Positions 2,239 through 26,909 of a DNA stretch of 28,746 nucleotides are shown piece after piece (position 1 is the stretch's first letter; each line of letters starts with the position of its first letter). The DNA is from a virus (Duplodnaviria; Heunggongvirae; Uroviricota; Caudoviricetes): positions 1 to 28,746 of IMG/VR virus record IMGVR_UViG_2713896907_000002; one strand, written 5' to 3'. The notes beneath the pieces were generated by a model. It ran no database searches and was not told the DNA's origin. It saw only the letters and a list, made by a program, of their open reading frames with translations. The translations under genes were made by a program, and so were the position numbers.

Positions 2239-3333
2239 ATGTTCATTACTAACACTGATGTTTTTACCTTTCTTTTCTTAGCTATATCATTAATAGCGGC
2301 TATTTTTGTCAAAAAAATAATCCCATCAACCGTAATAAATGTACATAATGACACAACCTTAGAAGGTTTAAGAGGCATTGCATGCTTATTTGTATTTATA
2401 AATCATGCTTCATATAGCATTCATCACATCGGAATACAAAATTGGCAAATGATGGGTGATTCACCATATACCGGGAGAATGGGAGCTTTCGGAGTGGAGA
2501 TATTTTTCTGTTTGACAGGGTACTTGTTTGCAAAAAAGATTCGCAAAGGAGATATAGACTTGTCATTTTTTGAAAAAAGAATCAGGAGGCTTGCTCCTGC
2601 ATATATATTTGTATCATTTGTAGTTTTTATATATTTCGTATTTATGAACTATAATGTTATTCGTGGTTACTACGATATATCGGCTTTGATCCAACAAATT
2701 TTCGGATTCGGTTTCTTTGGGAATAGAATATCTGTAAACGGTATGGTGGATACATCATTGAATGCTGTTGTGTGGACGCTTCCTTATGAATGGAAGTTTT
2801 ATGCAATAGTCCCCTTCGTAGCGGCTATTTATAAGCTAAGAAGGCCAATCCCTCTACTTATCGCATTTGGAGTAGCGACTGTTTGCATTGACTATTGGTC
2901 GAAAATGTTCTTGTGGGGGTTTTTCGTAACCGGATTCATTGCTTCATTCGTTGGTATTTTAGAAAATAGATATCTTAAGTATATCTCATATTACATAATG
3001 CTATTCCTATTTGCATATGCATTTAAGGGATCATTTGATATTCATGGTTTCCAAATGTTTGTCGTAGTATCTTTATTTTTCATAACATTTATTGCGGCAA
3101 GACCTAAGATATTCTCCATAGGAGTATTTGTTTACCTTGGAACTATAAGCTATAGCATTTATCTACTACATCAGGTAGTTACAACGGTTTTCATGAAATT
3201 AATCTCTGGGGTAATCGATCTACTTACCATAAATATGTATGAATACTTAATGGTCTGCATCATACCAATATCACTTACAATTTACTTATCATCTATTAGT
3301 TACAATAAAATAGAGAAAAAATTCATCAGATAA
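2239..3333 (+). CDS. Acyltransferase family 3 membrane protein (OafA/Oac-like O-antigen acetyltransferase), 364 aa
   Basis: ATG start. About ten hydrophobic helices. N-terminal region LEGLRGIACLFVFINHASY resembles the conserved R/H-containing first-helix motif of acyltransferase-3 proteins. Strongly AT-rich compared with its flanks and on the opposite strand to its neighbours. Confidence 0.8.
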   Translation: MFITNTDVFTFLFLAISLIAAIFVKKIIPSTVINVHNDTTLEGLRGIACLFVFINHASYSIHHIGIQNWQMMGDSPYTGRMGAFGVEIFFCLTGYLFAKKIRKGDIDLSFFEKRIRRLAPAYIFVSFVVFIYFVFMNYNVIRGYYDISALIQQIFGFGFFGNRISVNGMVDTSLNAVVWTLPYEWKFYAIVPFVAAIYKLRRPIPLLIAFGVATVCIDYWSKMFLWGFFVTGFIASFVGILENRYLKYISYYIMLFLFAYAFKGSFDIHGFQMFVVVSLFFITFIAARPKIFSIGVFVYLGTISYSIYLLHQVVTTVFMKLISGVIDLLTINMYEYLMVCIIPISLTIYLSSISYNKIEKKFIR

Positions 3334-3380: not shown

Positions 3381-5603
3381 TCAGCTGTTCGAGATTTTAC
3401 CAGATATCCTAAATCTTAGCGCTCCAGATTTGATGTAATTGTATGTGAGGAAAGTTCTTGTGCCATCAGATGCCACGGCATAGAACTGAATCTTTGTGAA
3501 GTCTGTAGCTCCTGTAGGAATAAATCCAATAACATCGACAGTTCCTGCTGGTAATGCATTCCCAAGCGCTGTCCTGACCTCTATCTCGCATCCTGCCCCT
3601 GGATAAAAACCAAGCCCTCTGGGAAGGGTGATTGTGATATTTCCTGTACCGCCTGTTGTTCCTGTAACATTTATACTTACATGCAAATCAACATGCTCAC
3701 CATCCCTCCTTGCAGTATATGTGCCAGTTTGTGTTACAGCTGTAGTATCATCGAAACCGATACTTCCAGTTAAGGCCGCATTAACCTGTAGTTCAGATTT
3801 AAATCCGCATATATTATTTCTCCACGGAATCGTTGGTTTATCACCATCCCATGTGATGGGTTGCGATGAAAAATGAGTTATTTTATTACCAAGAAATTTT
3901 AAATTAAACAAGTTGTTATTTATATCGCCAACAAGATAAGCAGCATAAAAAGGTAGCCCTCCCGTAACAACCTGTTCATTGTGAGAAGTTACAACAGCAT
4001 CGTGTATAGTATTGCTGGTTGAGCGAATCACAAACCCATAACCACCATTATCCATCGTTGCGCCAGAATCTGGATCTAATTTTGCAACGCTATCAGCATA
4101 TGGTCTATAAAGTGTATGCCCACCAGATATCAATTCAAAACCGATTAACATTTGCCTGTTAGGATATAAATCATCTGATGTTTTAGGATGTCCCCATGGA
4201 TGAGGATCTACAAGAGTATTCGCTCCGGTACCAGAAATGCGAATGCCTATTGGATAATCTATCGTTATAGGGTTTACAAAATGGCTATCACCAGTGCGAA
4301 TCCACAATCCAACTACCGACTTGCTTTCCCATTTCATAATTCCAAAGCAACTATGCATAATTGCGATTTCATAACCTATTGAAGGAATACCACCAATATC
4401 TGCCCCGCCTCTTAGCATCCCCCACGTTTCCATCTGACCTACCGTAACACCAGCTATATGCGTCATCAGAACACCAATTGCATCAACATGTTGGTAATAT
4501 ACGGTTCCCCAGTCAGTATTCTGCGTATGTCGTATGTGAATTCGTGGAATATAGGTACGCTTATCGCTATATGTGGTCGTTGGTGACATAATGTGATAGA
4601 CAGCCTTATAGCTATTTCCTGCGGCATCTACTGTTTGGAAATCACCAGTTGGATCTGCCCATATAACACCAGTCTGCAATACGCTAAGCCCTGCCAGATG
4701 CTTAATTGATGATTTAACCCGATAGACATTTGGCAGCCAAACTGTTTTGTTATTCTCATAAGCATAGTCATACGCATCCTGAATCATCACAGCCCAGTCA
4801 GTTTCTCCTGGATGATTTGCATAGAACTGCTCAGGTGTAACAAACTGCGAACGCGCAAATAGATCGTTTAAATCTGTTTGCACTGTACCGCTGGACATCG
4901 TGCCTATCAAACAACTTCCTGTTGGCTTCGCTAGTTCTATGAGAACATCAGCAGCAGAACCAGATTCTGGTAGTAGCATGATTGGGTTACCATTATCATC
5001 CATGCCTACAATTTTGTTTTTTCTCAACTCAACTGGTGGTAACTGCGGGATCATTTCTGCCGTGCGTAACGTTCTGCTAAAGAGAAGATCCGTATGCGAA
5101 GTGTTTCCAGCGCTAAGTGAGTCAGCATAATTCTTTGTCGCTGCATCCTGAGGGCGAATAGGGTCTCTTAAGTTTCTAATGTAGTTGTTTAGTGCGTCGT
5201 AATAATTAGCCACGAACGACGGCTTTCGCAGAACAAGGCTAAACCAACTACGCACTTGCTGGATCAGCATCGTCAGCTTATCGAACGCGTCTTCATGCAC
5301 CTCAGCGAAAAACTTTCCCTGATTGCGCAGATCAGTTTCCTGCGTAACCGGTAGCTCTCGTGATATAGAAATCTGATAACCGTTAGCCAACGCCTTCGAC
5401 AGAATTACATTACCGCCGTTATATCCTCCAGCTCCGGTAACTGTATAATCAGTATCAAGAGTCAGCACAGCAATATTTTCGTTAAGGTCAGAGACCTGAA
5501 CAACCAAGTCGGATTTTTTGAAAATACGGAAGGTATACGGAAATGATGTCGTAACGCCGTTACCTGTGTATTCGTTGTGGTCAACTTCGGTTGAGACCGT
5601 CAT
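3381..5603 (-). CDS. Tailspike / tail fiber protein (about 740 aa from the internal ATG)
   Basis: The track ORF starts at TTG (5705); the ATG at 5603 (MTVSTEVDH...) is preceded by GGAG. Large Gly/Thr/Asn-rich protein with beta-rich composition, located next to the host-range/seroconversion genes. Confidence 0.7.
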   Translation of the reverse strand: MTVSTEVDHNEYTGNGVTTSFPYTFRIFKKSDLVVQVSDLNENIAVLTLDTDYTVTGAGGYNGGNVILSKALANGYQISISRELPVTQETDLRNQGKFFAEVHEDAFDKLTMLIQQVRSWFSLVLRKPSFVANYYDALNNYIRNLRDPIRPQDAATKNYADSLSAGNTSHTDLLFSRTLRTAEMIPQLPPVELRKNKIVGMDDNGNPIMLLPESGSAADVLIELAKPTGSCLIGTMSSGTVQTDLNDLFARSQFVTPEQFYANHPGETDWAVMIQDAYDYAYENNKTVWLPNVYRVKSSIKHLAGLSVLQTGVIWADPTGDFQTVDAAGNSYKAVYHIMSPTTTYSDKRTYIPRIHIRHTQNTDWGTVYYQHVDAIGVLMTHIAGVTVGQMETWGMLRGGADIGGIPSIGYEIAIMHSCFGIMKWESKSVVGLWIRTGDSHFVNPITIDYPIGIRISGTGANTLVDPHPWGHPKTSDDLYPNRQMLIGFELISGGHTLYRPYADSVAKLDPDSGATMDNGGYGFVIRSTSNTIHDAVVTSHNEQVVTGGLPFYAAYLVGDINNNLFNLKFLGNKITHFSSQPITWDGDKPTIPWRNNICGFKSELQVNAALTGSIGFDDTTAVTQTGTYTARRDGEHVDLHVSINVTGTTGGTGNITITLPRGLGFYPGAGCEIEVRTALGNALPAGTVDVIGFIPTGATDFTKIQFYAVASDGTRTFLTYNYIKSGALRFRISGKISNS

Positions 5604-5711
5604 GTTAAATCTCCAGATAGTCGCACGCAGCACCCGTTGCGCCGCATATCTGGTTATTCTATTACCCAAAAAACCAGATATGGATAGAATAACTATAAAT
5701 ACCAATAGGTG

Positions 5712-5726
5712 TTACCTTTCAGGTAA
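5712..5726. promoter_or_regulatory. TTACC-N5-GGTAA palindrome (perfect)
   Basis: TTACC TTTCA GGTAA in the divergent intergenic region between the tailspike start (5603, minus) and the 85-aa gene (5803, plus). Identical 15-mer to the site at 24453-24467. A TGTATAAAT extended -10-like element lies at about 5767-5775. Confidence 0.5.
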
Positions 5727-6133: not shown

Positions 6134-6185
6134 AGTAATCGGGCACTGGCAAAATCCAGTGCCGGGATTGGCGTCCCGGATTACT
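6134..6185 (+). ncRNA. Structured RNA element candidate (multi-stem fold) in the antirepressor leader
   Basis: Outer stem AGTAATC (6134-6140) / GATTACT (6179-6185) enclosing a hairpin GGCACTGG-CAAAAT-CCAGTGCC and an alternative hairpin CCGGGA-TTGGCG-TCCCGG. No ORF of note overlaps on either strand. Confidence 0.3.
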
Positions 6186-6198
6186 AAAAGGCGCATTC

Positions 6199-6218
6199 AC
6201 CGCACAAGCGGTTTTTTT
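6199..6218 (+). terminator. Rho-independent terminator candidate (short stem plus T7 run)
   Basis: ACCGC-ACAA-GCGGT stem-loop followed by TTTTTTT (6212-6218), between the 85-aa gene and the antirepressor gene. Confidence 0.4.
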
Positions 6219-6317
6219 ATGCGTATAGCACGGCCACATTCGTATTATGGTGGGCTGTGTGGGGGCACCGAAAGGTGCGCCGGGTCCTTTTAGCCGGTTA
6301 CGCCAACCCTGCACAGT

Positions 6318-6350
6318 TCACCACCAACCGATTGGCGTCGGTAGTGGTGA
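6318..6350 (+). promoter_or_regulatory. Hairpin immediately upstream of the antirepressor ribosome-binding site
   Basis: TCACCA (6318-6323) pairs with TGGTGA (6345-6350), enclosing CCGA-TTGGCG-TCGG. It shares the 10-nt GATTGGCGTC (6330-6339) with the upstream hairpin at 6166-6175. Lies about 12 nt before the AAGG Shine-Dalgarno of the ATG at 6376. Confidence 0.35.
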
Positions 6351-6375: not shown

Positions 6376-7071
6376 ATGACAGCTACAAAAAGCACGTCCA
6401 TTTTTTCTTTCGAATCCCAAGCCGATATACGAGTAATCGTCATTAATGGTGAGCCATGGTTTATCGCTTCAGATGTTTGTCGGGCTATAGGCATAGCAAA
6501 CCATCGAGATGCTGTTCGAAAACTTGATGATGATGAGAAGGGCGTCGCTTCAACCGACACCCCTGGCGGTGAGCAAGAATCGATCATCATCTCCGAGTCA
6601 GGCCTCTACACACTGATCCTCCGCTGCCGCGATGCGGTGACACCAGGCACTATCCCCTACCGCTTTCGTAAATGGGTTACAGGTGAGGTACTTCCTCAGA
6701 TCCGCCGCACCGGAAGCTACATTAAAAACTCGCTCCCGCAGGAAGAACGGATAAAGATGGTTGCCGACCAGGTAGCCAACGCCACGGCGTCAGCAGTGAT
6801 GCAGGCAATGAAGATAGAGAACAAAACCTACAGTGCCCCGCTGAAGCCCGGATACCGCAGCCTGATTCATTCTCCGTCTGGTGTTCTCGGCCTGACTGAG
6901 AACTCACTTCTGATGAATCTGCTGAACCAGTTACAGGAAGACGGGCACGACGTATCTGGCGCGGCGGCGGAGCTGACCACCATGTTCTGCTACATCGTCG
7001 GTGTGAGCAAATGCCTGCGTGATATCCAGATGCACGCGGAGTACATAAACGACAAGGCAGGGTTCTTCTGA
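6376..7071 (+). CDS. Antirepressor-like protein with N-terminal Bro-N domain, 231 aa
   Basis: ATG start. The N-terminus (FSFESQADIRVIVINGEPWFIASDVCRAIGIANHRDAVRKL) matches the Bro-N / phage antirepressor N-terminal domain pattern. The C-terminal domain is paralogous to the upstream 85-aa protein. Confidence 0.75.
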   Translation: MTATKSTSIFSFESQADIRVIVINGEPWFIASDVCRAIGIANHRDAVRKLDDDEKGVASTDTPGGEQESIIISESGLYTLILRCRDAVTPGTIPYRFRKWVTGEVLPQIRRTGSYIKNSLPQEERIKMVADQVANATASAVMQAMKIENKTYSAPLKPGYRSLIHSPSGVLGLTENSLLMNLLNQLQEDGHDVSGAAAELTTMFCYIVGVSKCLRDIQMHAEYINDKAGFF

Positions 7072-22168: not shown

Positions 22169-22465
22169 TCACTCCTGTTCACTGGCCTCTTTGGCCATCT
22201 TCAAATACTGTTCAGGGCAATGCGCCATAACGCGCTGAAACAGTTCCAGCGCCAGATTGCGTTGCCCCTCATTAAATGCCATTGCCATAGCGTCCATCGG
22301 TGAGATAACGGAAAACACACGGCCTTTCTCCAGCACCGACCAGACAACGCGACGCCCCTGTTCACTGCTCATGACAAAGCGAATGTCATCAATTTCACGC
22401 TGTGCCATGTCACGTTGCTTACGGGCGTTTTCTTCTTTCAGTTGATCGTCTTCGTAATCTGTCAT
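22169..22465 (-). CDS. Hypothetical protein, 98 aa
   Basis: Overlaps the portal gene stop by 4 nt. Charged helical protein of unknown role. Confidence 0.45.
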   Translation of the reverse strand: MTDYEDDQLKEENARKQRDMAQREIDDIRFVMSSEQGRRVVWSVLEKGRVFSVISPMDAMAMAFNEGQRNLALELFQRVMAHCPEQYLKMAKEASEQE

Positions 22466-24141
22466 TGTGATTGCCCACCCTGACCACTAACTGCATTCGC
22501 CATAGCTGACAAAACACTCGGATCCGAAGTTTTAGCTTCGCTTAGCGTCTTGGCACCCTGTGCCGCCGCCATCCCCATCGCCATCATTTGTTGCTGCTGT
22601 TGCTGCTGTGCCCGTTGCTGGCGAGCCTGCTCAACCTGTTCCTGCGGAACAATGACGGTTGGAGACACTCCGGACATATCAGCGAATGCATCGATCGCCT
22701 GATCAACGTTGAGTTTGTCGAGAGCTTCTGGTTTCGCTTGCGCAAGTTGACCAATGAAGTTAACCGTGGACGCCAGACTGGACAGGCCGATAGACTTCTG
22801 CGCCTGAGCCATGACGGAAATGTATTCGACCTTCAGGGGCATGCCTTCCATCGCGTCAGGCGGTGGCGGAAGCATGTTTTTACGCACCATCATCGAGAAA
22901 GCGCGGTCAATGAGAGGATTAAGACATTCGTCGTTCAGACGCTCCAGAACCGGCCCCAACATCAGAAGTTTTTCTTCTTTCATTTCGATCACCGCTTCAA
23001 CAGGCATCGAGCGGGTATTGATGTTCTGTAACATCATGAACAGATCGACAAAGTAGGCGCTGTTAATGATTTGACGAGTGTCCTGAATGTCTGCCACCAA
23101 ATCTGCTGTACTGGGGTTAACCAGATAAGCAGGCCTGAAACCATCCTGACCAGTAATCTGATCGATATACGTGATGTCGCCAGGAAGAAGGGAGGCACGC
23201 TGATTCTTGAGGGAAGTCGGAGCAACCATCGGCGGATTGGTGGCTTTATCAATCAACTGCGACTTGCGCTTCTGGAGAAGCTGCAATGCCTTAACAGGTC
23301 CAAGCGCCAGCATGCCCGGGCATGATGATCCATAAACATCTTCGCCGTTAACTTCCCAGCGCGGAGCCATAATTGGAAACTCATCGAATCCGGATTCACG
23401 TAACAACTTGTCGTTGTCGCCGCCAACCTCGTAATAAACCGATTTGAATGGCTTGTTCTTGCTATCCAGCTTCGATGTATCGCGGTCAATGTTCGGGTAA
23501 ACCGAATGCATAACTTCAATCCACTTCTCGTAGGTGCCGCTTTCCCACATGCTTTTTACGGATTCGCTAACGTTATTTAGCCCGAACTCCTGAACAAGCT
23601 GACGAACAGTCATAGAGAACTTGCGAAAACAGGTGTCCACACTGCCACGAGGTGAGTTAGCCAGGTAGTAACTGCCTATCGGGAATGGCATTGTGCGAAT
23701 GATGTCCTCGTCATCCTCCAGCACCGCCATTGCACCAGTGCTGTATGTACCGAGGCTTCCGTATAACTGCGGCAGCGACTGGTAGAGATTCGACTTATTG
23801 AACATATCGTTCATGCGGTTCTGCACCGCCTCAAGCCACAACTTAACAGGTCCATAATCCATCATTTCAGGATCTGGCGTAGCCAGGCGAAACCACGGAC
23901 GCGCGGGGCTTGTGATGCCTGACATCATGCCGCTGGCGAGAGTGCGCGCCGCCATAGTCCCGGTCGAATCAATAATGCGTGTATTGCGCCGATCGTTACG
24001 GTTGACCTCAGAAGTCAGAAAGCGGGAACCACGCGGGTTGATGTAATCACTCAACTCGCGCCAGTGCGGCTCGAACGACTGACGCTCGCTTTCAAGTTGT
24101 GCGAACTGTTTGTTCAATCGCTCTTTAGTTGTTTCCGCCAT
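22462..24141 (-). CDS. Portal (head-to-tail connector) protein, 559 aa
   Basis: ATG start with GGAG. Size and position downstream of the terminase match a portal. C-terminus carries a poly-Gln / Met-Ala-rich tail. Confidence 0.75.
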   Translation of the reverse strand: MAETTKERLNKQFAQLESERQSFEPHWRELSDYINPRGSRFLTSEVNRNDRRNTRIIDSTGTMAARTLASGMMSGITSPARPWFRLATPDPEMMDYGPVKLWLEAVQNRMNDMFNKSNLYQSLPQLYGSLGTYSTGAMAVLEDDEDIIRTMPFPIGSYYLANSPRGSVDTCFRKFSMTVRQLVQEFGLNNVSESVKSMWESGTYEKWIEVMHSVYPNIDRDTSKLDSKNKPFKSVYYEVGGDNDKLLRESGFDEFPIMAPRWEVNGEDVYGSSCPGMLALGPVKALQLLQKRKSQLIDKATNPPMVAPTSLKNQRASLLPGDITYIDQITGQDGFRPAYLVNPSTADLVADIQDTRQIINSAYFVDLFMMLQNINTRSMPVEAVIEMKEEKLLMLGPVLERLNDECLNPLIDRAFSMMVRKNMLPPPPDAMEGMPLKVEYISVMAQAQKSIGLSSLASTVNFIGQLAQAKPEALDKLNVDQAIDAFADMSGVSPTVIVPQEQVEQARQQRAQQQQQQQMMAMGMAAAQGAKTLSEAKTSDPSVLSAMANAVSGQGGQSQ

Positions 24142-24155
24142 TTCAATGACTCCGG

Positions 24156-24362
24156 TTACTGACCAAGCAGCGTCTTACCGCTGGTATTAGCGGTTGATGT
24201 GTCGCCCTGAGAACCGGTAAGCAGCGTAGAACTACGACCAGCAGCAGCGCGACGGCGACGTGTTTCTTCGTCGCGGGCATCAACAACGGCGGCATCCTGC
24301 TCCTGTGGTGCTGCCTGAACTTCTGGTGTTGCAGGCACTGATGGTGAGCTACCCATGCACAT
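24156..24362 (-). CDS. Hypothetical small protein, 68 aa (uncertain)
   Basis: ATG start. Its upstream 11 nt, GGAGTCATTGA, are identical to the portal gene translation-initiation region. Low-complexity Ala/Arg/Ser-rich composition lowers confidence. Confidence 0.3.
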   Translation of the reverse strand: MCMGSSPSVPATPEVQAAPQEQDAAVVDARDEETRRRRAAAGRSSTLLTGSQGDTSTANTSGKTLLGQ

Positions 24363-24452
24363 ATCAATGACTCCGTACGCAATTAAATTATTACCAATTT
24401 AACCATATATGATTTATTTATCGTAGACAGTTGACATTTAACGCACGAATTA

Positions 24453-24467
24453 TTACCTTTCAGGTAA
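24453..24467. promoter_or_regulatory. TTACC-N5-GGTAA palindrome (perfect)
   Basis: TTACC TTTCA GGTAA, about 100 nt upstream of the portal-side operon start (minus) and upstream of the tRNA island (plus). A TTGACA hexamer lies at 24431-24436. Confidence 0.5.
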
Positions 24468-24788
24468 CCAAAGAGTTCATTCCGGTTACTAACCTGACTG
24501 GCTTGTCGTTAAATTGAACAGGTGGAGTGAGCTTTTATTTTGAGCAGTACGGCGTATGGCACATGCGCCGATAGCGGTCTGGATACGTTTAAGGGGCACC
24601 CTCCCTTGCTCGGGCAAACGAACCAGGTAGCCGGAATGTGCAAGTCGAGCGGTTTTATTCCGCGCACAGGGTTCACCATCCCGGCGATTCGGTGTGACAC
24701 CTCGGAAGAGACGAGGGTACAACGATGAGAGCATTTATGGAGCCGCGACAAAGTGTGGTGCCTTAACAGGCTAAGTTCTCTCAGCGTT

Positions 24789-24865
24789 GTGGCATTAGAT
24801 CAGTTGGACAGAGCAACCGCCTTCTAAGCGGTTGGTCGCAGGTTCGAATCCTGCATGCCGCGCCA
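24789..24865 (+). tRNA. tRNA-Arg (anticodon UCU), phage-encoded, with encoded CCA
   Basis: Manual cloverleaf: acceptor GTGGCAT/ATGCCGC (one G-U pair), D-arm GATC-AGTTGGAC-AGAGC (one A-G mismatch), anticodon stem ACCGC/GCGGT with loop CTTCTAA, T-arm GCAGG-TTCGAAT-CCTGC, discriminator G, then CCA. Closely resembles enterobacterial argU. Confidence 0.8.
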
Positions 24866-24908
24866 GAATCACGCCTAAGGACCGTGATGCCAGAAGTTCC
24901 AGGGGCTT

Positions 24909-24950
24909 GGCGGTGATGGTTTCCCTTGAAGGACTATCACCGCCCTTTTT
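24909..24950 (+). terminator. Rho-independent terminator candidate after the tRNA
   Basis: GGCGGTGAT (24909-24917) pairs with ATCACCGCC (24936-24944) around an 18-nt loop, followed by CTTTTT. Confidence 0.45.
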
Positions 24951-25028
24951 ACAGCAGGACGCCATTGCGATGACTTCATGCTGTAAACCAGTACAGCCAC
25001 GGAAGGCATAACTCATAGCTTCCAGTTC

Positions 25029-25052
25029 GCCCGGTTCGCCGGGCATTTTTTT
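25029..25052 (+). terminator. Rho-independent terminator (UUCG-loop hairpin plus T7 run)
   Basis: GCCCGG-TTCG-CCGGGC followed by A and TTTTTTT (25046-25052). Confidence 0.65.
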
Positions 25053-25122
25053 ACTTGAATTTTACCCTCAACAAACCAACATAGAACTTGGCATTTGCCA
25101 TAACTTTCACAAGGAGTCAGCC

Positions 25123-25422
25123 ATGAATGGTTGGAATAGAAAAAAGACTCAATATTTAGCTGAGTGCATCCACGAACACGAAAAAGCCGACGGAGTAACC
25201 TACGATCCTAACGGTATGGTTAGCTACTGGAACACAAAATATAACCTCGTTCCTGCTGAACAGTTGCCAGCATTACAAAATCAGGTATCTCTCGAATTAG
25301 AAGCTCTACGCGGTGCTGAGACTAACCATGTAACAATTAGCAACATTGGTGCCGCTAAGTTTGGATTCGACTCTGTAATAGGGAATCATCTACCTAACTT
25401 CGATCCGGAGCCAGTTAAGTAA
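25123..25422 (+). CDS. Hypothetical protein, 99 aa (plus-strand moron between terminase and portal)
   Basis: ATG start preceded by AAGGAG with a 7-nt spacer. Opposite strand to the surrounding structural operon, co-located with the tRNA island. Confidence 0.55.
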   Translation: MNGWNRKKTQYLAECIHEHEKADGVTYDPNGMVSYWNTKYNLVPAEQLPALQNQVSLELEALRGAETNHVTISNIGAAKFGFDSVIGNHLPNFDPEPVK

Positions 25423-25433
25423 TTTGCTGACCA

Positions 25434-26909
25434 TTATGCATAAGGGTCATAATCCGTTATGGCCCTTCCCTGCTGGCTTTGCTGTCCTGGTATATTTATG
25501 CGTTTCGAGACCGGGAAAGCAAACGTCAGCAGTAGCGCATCGCCTTTACCAGGAGAACGCCCAAGACGCTCTTTGATATCTTCCTTCGGTTCGATAACGA
25601 TTTTACCGTCCACACGAACTTTGTACTCTGCCGCCGACAGGTCGTCTGCAGTTTCCTGGTCATCCAGCATGCCGCCCAGCCTCAGCCATGTCTTACATGA
25701 GTTGAACATCTCCCCACGCTTGTTAAGCATCTGCGGGTCAGTGGACGCACCGCTGAACGGAACAAGTTGCCATGTACGTCCCCAGCCATCACCGATTGAC
25801 TTCAAACCGGTTCCGTAACCGAAGTCGATGAACACCGCGTCAGCCTGGTACTGGTCTTCAAAGTCAGCGATACGCTTCGCCATAATCAGATCGTCGGTGG
25901 TCTTGTTGCCGGTCCACAGCACCTTACTGTGCAGCCCCTGCCGCAGGTATATCACCGCGTCATCAACACCGGAGTATGCAGGGTCAACGCCGATTATCAC
26001 CGGAGCATGTGCCACCTGCGCAGCAGTTACCACCCGTTTCATTGCCTCGTCAGTAAGACCGGTAGGGATAAACTGCAATTCAGATGCATCAGGGAATATA
26101 CCGCGCACACGTATTTTAACGAAGTCGCTGTCTTCCCCGTAGTCATCAACCCATTTCTGCAACTGCTGTTTGTTGGTGCCTTCCACCGTCCGGCTGTCAA
26201 TCTGCGCAGTTTTCCAGCGGTGTTTATATTTGCGGAAACATTCGCGGAAACGTCCGGTATTACGCGTCGGGTTTCCGAACGCCACCCAGATAATCTCAGT
26301 GTCTTCGTCCGTTAGCGCACCCTCGGCAACTTCCCACACCAGATCCGCAATGTTCGACGCTTCATCGAATACCACGATGATGCGTTTGCGCTCGTTGTGT
26401 AGTCCGGCGAATGCCTCAGTGTTGTGCTCAGACCAGGGGATTGCGTCAGCTCGCCACCGCTTGTCGTGCCCAGGATCATTGCTGTACATCGCGGTAGCGG
26501 TACAGGTAAACCAGTCTTTCGTGATAGCAAGGTTCGACCACTTGATAATTTCCGGCCAGGTCTTCGTTCGTAGCTGGTTGTCGGTGTTGGCGGTCACCAC
26601 GACCTTACAATCCTCGCAAGTGGACATGCCCCAGTTGATGAGCATTGAGATGAATGCGGATTTACCAATACCGTGACCAGAAGCACGTGCCAGCATAAGC
26701 GGCTGATAACGCGTCTCTGGATTCTGCAGGTGATCACGTATCTCTCGGAACGCATCGGCCTGCCACTGACGTGGACCGGTAGCATGTGCCAGTTCAGTCC
26801 CCTCTTCCCCCCAAGGGAACGCATAGAGGGCATAGCCAAGCGGATCGTGAGTGAACCCTGCAATATCTTCGATTAACTGCTCTTCAGGAGATAACGCTGC
26901 ATCTGTCAC
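25434..26909 (-). CDS. Terminase large subunit, 491 aa
   Basis: GTG start overlapping the small-subunit stop. Walker A-like ASGHGIGKS, Walker B-like IIVVFDEAS, and a C-terminal nuclease-type acidic segment (VIIGVDPAYSG). Confidence 0.85.
   Translation of the reverse strand: MTDAALSPEEQLIEDIAGFTHDPLGYALYAFPWGEEGTELAHATGPRQWQADAFREIRDHLQNPETRYQPLMLARASGHGIGKSAFISMLINWGMSTCEDCKVVVTANTDNQLRTKTWPEIIKWSNLAITKDWFTCTATAMYSNDPGHDKRWRADAIPWSEHNTEAFAGLHNERKRIIVVFDEASNIADLVWEVAEGALTDEDTEIIWVAFGNPTRNTGRFRECFRKYKHRWKTAQIDSRTVEGTNKQQLQKWVDDYGEDSDFVKIRVRGIFPDASELQFIPTGLTDEAMKRVVTAAQVAHAPVIIGVDPAYSGVDDAVIYLRQGLHSKVLWTGNKTTDDLIMAKRIADFEDQYQADAVFIDFGYGTGLKSIGDGWGRTWQLVPFSGASTDPQMLNKRGEMFNSCKTWLRLGGMLDDQETADDLSAAEYKVRVDGKIVIEPKEDIKERLGRSPGKGDALLLTFAFPVSKRINIPGQQSQQGRAITDYDPYA

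Follow-up and report, generated by a model that had tools for sequence, protein, structure and literature searches.

We identified a conserved structured RNA in the genome of a phiV10/epsilon15-like podophage or prophage of the genus Uetakevirus (IMG/VR record IMGVR_UViG_2713896907_000002, positions 1 to 28,746; hereafter the window, meaning the whole stretch of 28,746 nucleotides (nt) that was analysed). The RNA is encoded within a plus-strand island (24363-25433) located between the portal and large terminase genes, in which a promoter and operator, a structured leader RNA of ~330 nt, a tRNA-Arg(UCU), two intrinsic terminators (T1 and T2) and a variable cargo open reading frame (ORF) follow one another. 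An earlier description made from the sequence alone, here termed the original prediction, had listed the leader, tRNA, terminators and ORF of this island, all of which were located at the positions that it gave. Core and 3′ domain of the leader (24549-24784) together belong to a widespread, uncatalogued, pseudoknotted RNA family which is independent of the tRNA. Members of the family are found in three groups of temperate phages that are unrelated to one another, always in sense orientation and shortly after an early promoter under repressor control, and in most cases a strong terminator comes next. We tentatively propose, at a probability of roughly 40 %, that this element is a put-like, cis-acting processive antiterminator or anti-Rho element.

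A widespread RNA family within the leader

Positions 24470-24788 contain nothing but short overlapping ORFs on both strands, in agreement with the original prediction, whose suspicion that the leader holds another RNA element proved correct. The conserved RNA (24549-24784) outlasts the tRNA in conservation, being spread more widely than tRNA-Arg. In BLAST searches the middle of the leader (24549 to ~24735, sometimes to 24795) showed 72-83 % identity to non-coding DNA of unrelated phages, including the lambda-like phages mEp460, cdtI, 2H10 and Stx2c- and Stx2a-converting phages, the P1-like group (P1, P7, D6, SJ46 and RCS47) and phages of Klebsiella, Enterobacter and Stenotrophomonas. A 19-mer within it (GGTAGCCGGAATGTGCAAG, 24626-24644) is invariant throughout these phages and is present in more than 120 IMG/VR contigs, a lower bound, and in 24 contigs of GTDB species genomes, nearly all from Enterobacterales; together these contigs yielded 118 distinct core sequences. 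Complete E. coli genomes also contain the core: 1,843 of the 5,426 searched (34 %) have it, with up to four copies each.

Among the matches listed no RefSeq RNA feature lies under the core, a few matches overlapping only a 'hypothetical protein'. A search of 24470-24788 against Rfam 15 with permissive filters gave no match to the leader either at the gathering threshold or at E values up to 10, the tRNA alone being matched, and a full-text literature search for conserved sequence strings returned nothing. Opposite-strand 'hypothetical protein' genes cross the tRNA or the element in phiV10 (phiV10p04; locus L005, 2827-3078), mEp460 (mEp460_037; locus L001, 2943-3311) and further phage records (such as locus L010, 2323-2613), and these ORFs are very likely spurious.

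Of the 155 copies of the element, tRNA-Arg comes after 30 and tRNA-Ile2 before 19 (the P1-like copies), and 106 have no tRNA nearby, which rules out a leader specific to tRNAs. The leader is non-coding, since indels among relatives are not multiples of three and base pairs change in a compensatory manner. A DNA-level element such as an origin or pac site is unlikely: G·U pairs are consistent with the sense strand only and the orientation always follows transcription, for which reasons the sense strand is taken to be the folding strand. Self-cleaving ribozymes (HDV-like, theta, hammerhead and others) were set aside as improbable, there being no Rfam match and a different topology. Elsewhere in the window, the element model aligns weakly to positions 1102-1145 through its P4/GGCGA part (5.2 bits, E 1.9), which is probably a chance match.

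Structure and covariation

The original prediction had called for the leader to be folded. Folding of the single sequence gave little information (z = -1.35 with the core alone, -2.9 with leader and tRNA together). A covarying structure was obtained by comparison, testing a hand-derived structure on an alignment of 53 copies less than 94 % alike (alignment A2). Canonical pairs occupied 96 % of pair cells as against 24.9-44.1 % when the partners were slid by 1-3 columns. Compensatory double changes were present at 13 pairs, with one pseudoknot (PK2) among the helices concerned, and the covariation score of 0.245 was reached by none of 500 shuffled alignments (0.112 ± 0.006), the slid controls giving at most 0.071. 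Within the core the structure comprises helices P1 to P5, a GG/CC pairing and the pseudoknots PK1 and PK2 (Table 1). RNAalifold independently recovers P2, P4, P5 and PK1; its preferred 5′ fold excludes P1 whereas only P1 shows double covariation, and two conformers may therefore be possible at the 5′ end.

The strands of P7, which closes the 3′ domain, are conserved in 74 of the 155 loci, the window included, with an enclosed insert that varies from ~40 to 140 nt and the conserved tail AGCGUUGUGG thereafter. In the window copy a private G-to-U substitution at 24777 places a C·U mismatch in P7. Upstream of the core, a 5′ hairpin is conserved in Uetakeviruses only; its epsilon15 counterpart is annotated as an RNase III site, and from its predicted fold it looks like a terminator or processing site.

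Genomic settings of the element

In lambdoid phages without an annotated N (mEp460, cdtI and Stx2c) the element is found in the pL leader. The order in mEp460 is the cI stop, a terminator, a promoter (TTGCAT-17-TATCTT), the element, ~190 nt of non-coding RNA, a terminator of -21 kcal/mol and the first early-left ORF. The element starts ~40 nt after the promoter, the -35 of which overlaps one of two TTGC-N7-GCAA operators, and this CI operator is also found at mEp460 oR. In this arrangement the mEp460 element occupies the place in the pL leader where lambda has nutL and HK022 has putL. There is no N gene in the mEp460 annotation, in which a Q-like protein is annotated, and the first pL ORF (phrog_204) is, unlike N, not arginine-rich. 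For phage LLS, whose immunity region resembles that of mEp460 and whose repressor is nearest to that of mEp460_4F5, a 2025 paper (PMC12315714) likewise reported no N and speculated that a put-like RNA is at work.

In P1 and P7 the element forms part of the ban operon, which is under C1 control; trnI ends 14 nt upstream of it and ban begins ~100 nt downstream. These P1-like copies are located in the 5′ untranslated region (5′ UTR) of ban and are missing the 3′ domain and conserved tail. Epsilon15 retains only P1 and the 5′ half of P2 (locus L004, 2532-2691), the rest of the element and the tRNA having been lost through a deletion that joins the P2 apical loop to the T1 loop via the shared sequence TTCCCTTGATGCT. 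The P2 and T1 loops share TTCCCTTGATGCT in other relatives also.

In the window the promoter of the island is overlapped by a palindrome, TTACC-N5-GGTAA, of which there are nine copies (1942, 2188, 5712, 6092, 7137, 7238, 24453, 27502 and 27520) against 0.58 expected, none of 100 shuffles reaching nine. The copies cluster round the isrK/C4/Ant immunity region and at further promoters. Epsilon15 contains the identical palindrome in the identical place, annotated as a repressor binding site, and its homologous -35 position reads TTGACA. The nine palindromes are thus likely to be dispersed repressor operators at several promoters, reminiscent of C1 control in P1. Since its promoter overlaps a repressor operator, the island should be an early unit under the phage repressor, silent in the lysogen and transcribed upon induction or infection, and a lysogenic-conversion moron is ruled out on the same grounds. 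The palindrome at 5712 is identical to that of the island promoter. In the immunity region itself (6143-6328 and 6376-7071) an Ant/BRO anti-repressor gene is immediately preceded by isrK (76.9 bits) and the C4 antisense RNA (77.7 bits), an arrangement corresponding to a P1/P7-type immI immunity module within an epsilon15-like podophage.

We profiled same-strand terminators relative to the 19-mer in 147 distinct contexts. They peak just upstream of the element, at the end of the repressor gene, and again at +200 to +400, where their density is 0.18-0.52 per locus per 100 nt compared to a background of ~0.05. A terminator is present within 700 nt in about 10 of 16 independent downstream contexts, at a distance from the element of ~60-550 nt. 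The T1 stem of Enterobacter phage Tyrion (GGCGGTACCAG/CTGGTACCGCC) is the stem of the mEp460 terminator, so that element and terminator seem to move as one module.

Relationship to put, nut and sRNA-17

The put RNAs (HK022 putL and putR, HK639 putL) are cis-acting processive antiterminators that bind the zinc-binding domain of the RNA polymerase beta′ subunit. HK639 carries an annotated 'putL-like antiterminator RNA', and putL of HK022 was located by similarity to this copy; put is absent from Rfam, in which HK022 putL gives no match. In lambda-like phages with no annotated N, both put and the element occupy the untranslated leader after a CI-repressed early promoter, with terminators next; their loci share the layout terminator-promoter-RNA-terminator, and neither is linked to a dedicated protein gene. 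The two were never found together in 262 loci (155 with the element and 107 with put; 2.5 Mb). They also share a CGGCG/CGUCG helix with CAUG before its 3′ strand, followed by GCGG, a hairpin and GG(C)AAUG, a suggestive likeness that falls short of significance. U28 of put, which lies within that CAUG, inserts into the beta′ zinc-binding domain of the polymerase (PMC9378689). In contrast to put, which is ~70 nt in length with two stems, the element measures ~190-240 nt, has at least six helices and two pseudoknots, and occurs additionally in P1-like and epsilon15-like phages. Two put-like IMG/VR loci (L224 and L242) contain stem I followed by a perfect boxA string, CGCTCTTTAACAA, in place of stem II, which would point to hybrids that combine the first stem of put and a site of the Nus type.

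Likenesses to lambda nut/N and to rrn-type boxA (NusB/NusE/SuhB) are the location in the pL leader, the small purine-loop hairpin P5, a boxA-like 3′ tail and a likely shared need to shield a long untranslated transcript from Rho. The order and spacing of these parts are however unlike boxA-boxB and the fold of the element is much larger. The boxA consensus is UGCUCUUUA, with which the element tail UGCUCUCAGCG agrees at 6 of the first 8 positions.

A 193-nt RNA named 'sRNA-17' has been published from E. coli K1 RS218, where it is encoded in a mEp460-like prophage (Song et al., Front Microbiol 2020, PMC7719688). Mapping of the sRNA-17 primers (Table S2 of PMC7719688) on mEp460 placed its start, CGTTGTGGTGAATG, at the 3′ boundary of the element and its end at the terminator. 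This 5′ end corresponds to the start of the tRNA in the window, where tRNA-Arg takes the place of sRNA-17 within the same genetic module. Primers ATTTGGTTGTAACACGGCGTAT and GCTGAGAGCACTTAGCCAGTTAC, with which the published 'promoter of sRNA-17' was amplified, delimit the element itself, which the paper takes as promoter DNA with ArcA sites and not as RNA. The forward primer used for sRNA-17 in quantitative reverse transcription PCR falls inside the 5′ end of the element, the amplicon consisting of the element plus sRNA-17. Given this primer and the 5′ end of sRNA-17 at the 3′ boundary, the published data indicate that a joint transcript of the element and the downstream RNA is made, from which the element is then cut off, an RNA end forming at its 3′ boundary. 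sRNA-17 of mEp460 (locus L001, 3236-3428) starts with GUGG like the tRNA and has a possible acceptor-like stem, GUGGUGA/UCACCAC, beside a CCGG hairpin, so that RNase P may process it like a tRNA.

A candidate antiterminator and alternative roles

We favour antitermination because of the positional equivalence to putL and nutL in phages without an annotated N, and because early-left transcription must cross a terminator and the element precedes long untranslated stretches. Like put in HK022 and HK639, the element RNA would act in cis, on the very polymerase molecule that produced it, rendering elongation resistant to Rho-dependent termination over the long untranslated stretch and to termination at T1 and T2, such that a single promoter would serve both the tRNA and the cargo ORF. 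Read-through would give access to the early-left operon in lambda-like phages without an annotated N, and to ban in P1. Cleavage by RNase P at the 5′ end of the tRNA would free the leader as a discrete RNA. That the element is portable among phages of unrelated groups speaks for a target in the host and against a partner specific to one phage. A broader and more tentative proposal is that the element represents a second class of RNA, structurally unrelated to put, that reprograms E. coli RNA polymerase or termination factors, and that would serve as a ~200-nt pseudoknotted antiterminator of early transcription in lambda-like phages (those without annotated N or put), P1-like phage-plasmids and epsilon15-like phages.

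A number of observations weigh against an antiterminator. The element is ruled out as a member of the put family, as covariance models and a hidden Markov model (HMM) find no relation in either direction: a put covariance model (R2, built from 48 put sequences; filters off, E up to 10) detected nothing in the element yet recovered putL at 91.3 bits and the diverged putR at 37.5 bits, a put HMM gave E ~1 on the 53 element copies, and the element model (R1) had no match in put. A search of HK022 and HK639 with the element model in nhmmer likewise returned only a chance 15-mer inside nun. The motif shared by put and the element (CAUGCGUCG) could be due to chance (p ~0.05 by our own estimate). A terminator scan detected no terminator before ban in P1-like copies, and the enrichment of terminators is modest when counted by independent contexts. 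Lambdoid genomes contain one copy of the element only, so the pR operon would need another mechanism, and epsilon15 is viable despite the loss of most of the element and of the tRNA. In the island, transcripts continuing beyond the cargo ORF would enter the terminase gene in antisense orientation. Finally, an element and terminator that travel as a module would equally fit a self-contained non-coding RNA gene.

Such a gene, consisting of promoter, structured RNA and terminator, would give a processed product acting in trans in early lytic growth. This RNA might, for instance, titrate a host protein, regulate host mRNAs or counteract host defences, and the terminators would do no more than end the gene. 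Co-inheritance of element and terminator, illustrated by the Tyrion T1 stem, is as expected of this arrangement, the 3′ boundary of the element coincides twice with an RNA end (the 5′ end of the tRNA and that of sRNA-17 in RS218), the invariant loops and pseudoknots would suit a conserved host factor, and deletion of the adjacent sRNA-17 region altered host transcript levels (PMC7719688). We nonetheless regard a trans-acting RNA as rather unlikely, since in lambda-like phages the unit is placed between pL and the early-left genes and the polymerase still has to pass the terminator, while P1-like copies are located directly in the ban 5′ UTR without 3′ domain or terminator. Recruitment of a protein antiterminator to a nut-like site, be it a phage N-like or Q-like protein or host NusB/NusE-SuhB, would account for the position equivalent to nutL, with P5, a 5-bp hairpin with a purine-rich GAAGAGA loop, as the boxB-like part and UGCUCUCAGCG as the boxA-like part. 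A boxA/NusB-E or lambda-type nut site was rejected on its imperfect boxA inside helix P7, the lack of an annotated N and a first pL ORF unlike N. The boxA-like strand is moreover off consensus at positions known to matter, P1-like copies do without the tail, the remainder of the fold exceeds any nut site by far in complexity, and we know of no phage protein common to all three phage groups; recruitment of this kind is clearly improbable.

A role in RNA processing or stability, whether as a structured 5′ cap against RNases or as a guide for cleavage of the adjoining tRNA or small RNA by RNase P or RNase E, draws on the presence of an adjoining tRNA in 49 of the 155 loci (tRNA-Arg downstream of the element or tRNA-Ile2 14 nt upstream), on the mapped RNA end at the 3′ boundary and on the location of the element near the transcript 5′ end in every context. 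The 106 copies without a tRNA argue otherwise, as does the fact that tRNAs need no such leaders, and simple stabilising hairpins require neither ~45 invariant positions nor two pseudoknots, making this role distinctly doubtful. Highly conserved junctions and pseudoknots in a 5′ leader with a terminator downstream could also be those of a riboswitch-like sensor of a small molecule controlling that terminator, and the alternative 5′ fold that excludes P1 hints at the two conformers which such a sensor would need. An expression platform overlapping the conserved core is however precluded because a whole tRNA in the window, or ~190 nt of other RNA in mEp460, separates the element from the terminator; the distance to the terminator varies from ~60 to 550 nt and P1-like copies have none, so that a riboswitch appears very unlikely. 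That the leader is simply long and functionless, with the island serving only to supply a rare-codon tRNA, would agree with a real tRNA, enriched AGA/AGG codons and an epsilon15 that does without the element. It is hardly credible for a leader that is conserved more widely than the tRNA, mostly without it, and with extensive compensatory covariation.

Few genetic systems have been studied as thoroughly as P1 and the lambda-like phages, yet their early operons contain an unannotated conserved RNA of ~190-240 nt with two pseudoknots. Should this RNA be an antiterminator, it would account for early-left expression in many lambda-like prophages without N and put, including Stx2c- and cdt-converting ones, and would be a second natural RNA that modifies RNA polymerase, of interest for comparison with put and as a part for synthetic biology. 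If not, it would still be a new host-directed phage RNA with a target worth finding. In either case the published 'promoter' fragment of sRNA-17 from E. coli K1 is itself a structured RNA.

The tRNA-Arg(UCU) and AGA/AGG codons

The tRNA-Arg(UCU) is genuine, being called by ARAGORN (anticodon tct) and scoring 60.8 bits with the Rfam tRNA model against a gathering score of 29. The A-G mismatch reported for its D-stem is present (GAUC/GAGC, A11 opposite G24). The 30 loci with a tRNA after the same leader represent nine distinct tRNA sequences, and the other eight variants (29 loci) all have C11-G24. The mismatch is a substitution private to the window copy and not a property of the gene, and it is uninformative on the function of the family. 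The original prediction asked whether the tRNA is fully functional. Pair 11-24 is not intact in the window copy; the cloverleaf passes the family threshold, and one mismatch in a 4-bp stem would not by itself suffice for a pseudogene call. E. coli arginyl-tRNA synthetase recognises its tRNAs by A20, C35 and a purine (A or G) at position 73. Read from its sequence the window tRNA has all of these, keeping A20 (D-loop AGUUGGACA), C35 in the anticodon UCU and a discriminator G, along with an encoded CCA. The anticodon, A20, C35 and purine discriminator are those of host argU, to which we take the tRNA to be 82 % identical; the acceptor and anticodon stems differ and C11A is private to the window copy. 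A 56-nt stretch is 91 % identical by BLAST to a chromosomal E. coli tRNA-Arg gene. A phage-encoded rare-codon tRNA is likewise known from P1, namely trnI (tRNA-Ile2). Two conserved pairs are thus disrupted by substitutions private to the window copy, one by C11A in the tRNA (24799) and the other by the G-to-U change in P7 (24777), which could reflect early prophage decay, neutral drift or sequencing errors.

The 33 ORFs of the window contain 8.5 AGA and 4.3 AGG per 1000 codons, together 21 % of Arg codons. E. coli K-12 uses roughly 2 AGA and 1 AGG per 1000 codons, and the window is therefore at about four times the host level. Both the tRNA and the raised AGA/AGG usage behind the proposal of codon supplementation are thereby borne out, but the enrichment does not extend to the neighbouring head and packaging genes, where the major capsid gene has no AGA/AGG codon, the portal gene one and the terminase gene two. 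By far the richest are the O-antigen acetyltransferase and tailspike genes (Table 1), and some virion and injection proteins also hold such codons. It is plausible that the tRNA supplements AGA/AGG decoding for these exchangeable AT-rich modules and not for the neighbouring late genes. The AGA/AGG richness of both host-range modules would also fit their recent horizontal exchange.

Layout and conservation of the island

Over the first 690 of its 1071 bases the island matches phiV10, O157 typing phages 9 and 10, TL-2011b and others at ~98 % identity (BLAST). In phiV10-like phages the 98 % identical block runs to 25053 and so includes the spacer between T1 and T2. The features of the island, its flanking genes and the two AGA/AGG-rich genes are given in Table 1.

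Table 1 Positions of the features described in the window
Feature	Position	Strand	Evidence and remarks
O-antigen acetyltransferase	2239-3333		AGA/AGG 11 of 13 Arg codons
Tailspike	3381-5705		AGA/AGG 18 of 35 Arg codons
Portal/head-tail connector	22462-24141	-	PF12236, 1.6e-187
Conserved 68-aa ORF between portal and island	24156-24362	-	phrog_831
Sigma-70-like promoter	24424-24453	+	TAGACA, 18-nt spacer, AATTAT; consensus scan
Repressor operator palindrome (putative)	24453-24467	+	TTACCTTTCAGGTAA, over the -10/start region; repeat count, epsilon15 annotation
5′ hairpin of leader, then UUUUAUUU	24471-24543	+	fold -10.3 kcal/mol; upstream of conserved core
Conserved core	24549-24735	+	alignment A2; covariance model R1 scores window copy 160 bits
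P1	24550-54 / 24566-70		one pair GC in 27, AU in 25 sequences
PK1	24559-64 / 24636-41		GCACAU/AUGUGC; predicted from perfect complementarity, invariant, thus no covariation signal
GG/CC	24576-77 / 24631-32		
P2	24578-82 / 24623-27		CG 40, UA 13; variable insert 24583-24622
P3	24649-52 / 24660-63		
P4	24668-71 / 24679-82		covariation
PK2	24674-77 / 24691-94		P4 loop with downstream GGUG; CACC/GGUG vs AACC/GGUU, 47 to 6
P5	24700-04 / 24712-16		four of five pairs covary; 5 bp, purine-rich GAAGAGA loop
3′ domain	24727-24784	+	P7, GAGAGCAU (24727-34) with GUUCUCUC (24775-82), then tail AGCGUU(G)
tRNA-Arg(UCU)	24789-24865	+	ARAGORN; Rfam RF00005; encoded CCA; private A11·G24 (A at 24799)
Intrinsic terminator T1	hairpin 24909-24944, to 24950	+	14 bp then CTTTTT, ~-22.8 kcal/mol
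Spacer T1-T2	24951-25028	+	conserved; GGAAG...CUUCC hairpin with variable loop; kept in phiV10-like phages and epsilon15
Intrinsic terminator T2	hairpin 25029-25044, to 25052	+	GCCCGG-UUCG-CCGGGC then ATTTTTTT
Variable cargo ORF, 99 aa	25123-25422	+	ribosome binding site AAGGAG at 25111-25116, 6 nt before ATG
Large terminase	25434-26909	-	phrog_2, 9e-53

The 99-aa cargo ORF is well initiated, as originally described. It matched no Pfam or PHROG family and has five homologues in 5.8 billion proteins. We consider it rare because at least 80 % of the 1071-bp island was covered in only one matching E. coli genome, and other phages carry different ORFs in the cargo position after the terminators.

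Both terminators that had been predicted consist of a GC-rich hairpin and U tract, with compensatory changes in both stems among relatives, although the count from a terminator scan of the region was not above chance (3 compared to 2.0 ± 1.3 in shuffles). T1 can be taken as real because it is conserved with compensatory stem changes in relatives from E. coli, Klebsiella, Salmonella and Enterobacter, and the T2 stem reads GCCCAC/GUGGGC in epsilon15. The spacer and T2 (24951-25052; epsilon15 locus L004, 2612-2712) are common to E. coli and Salmonella phages and could constitute a separate small RNA of about 100 nt.

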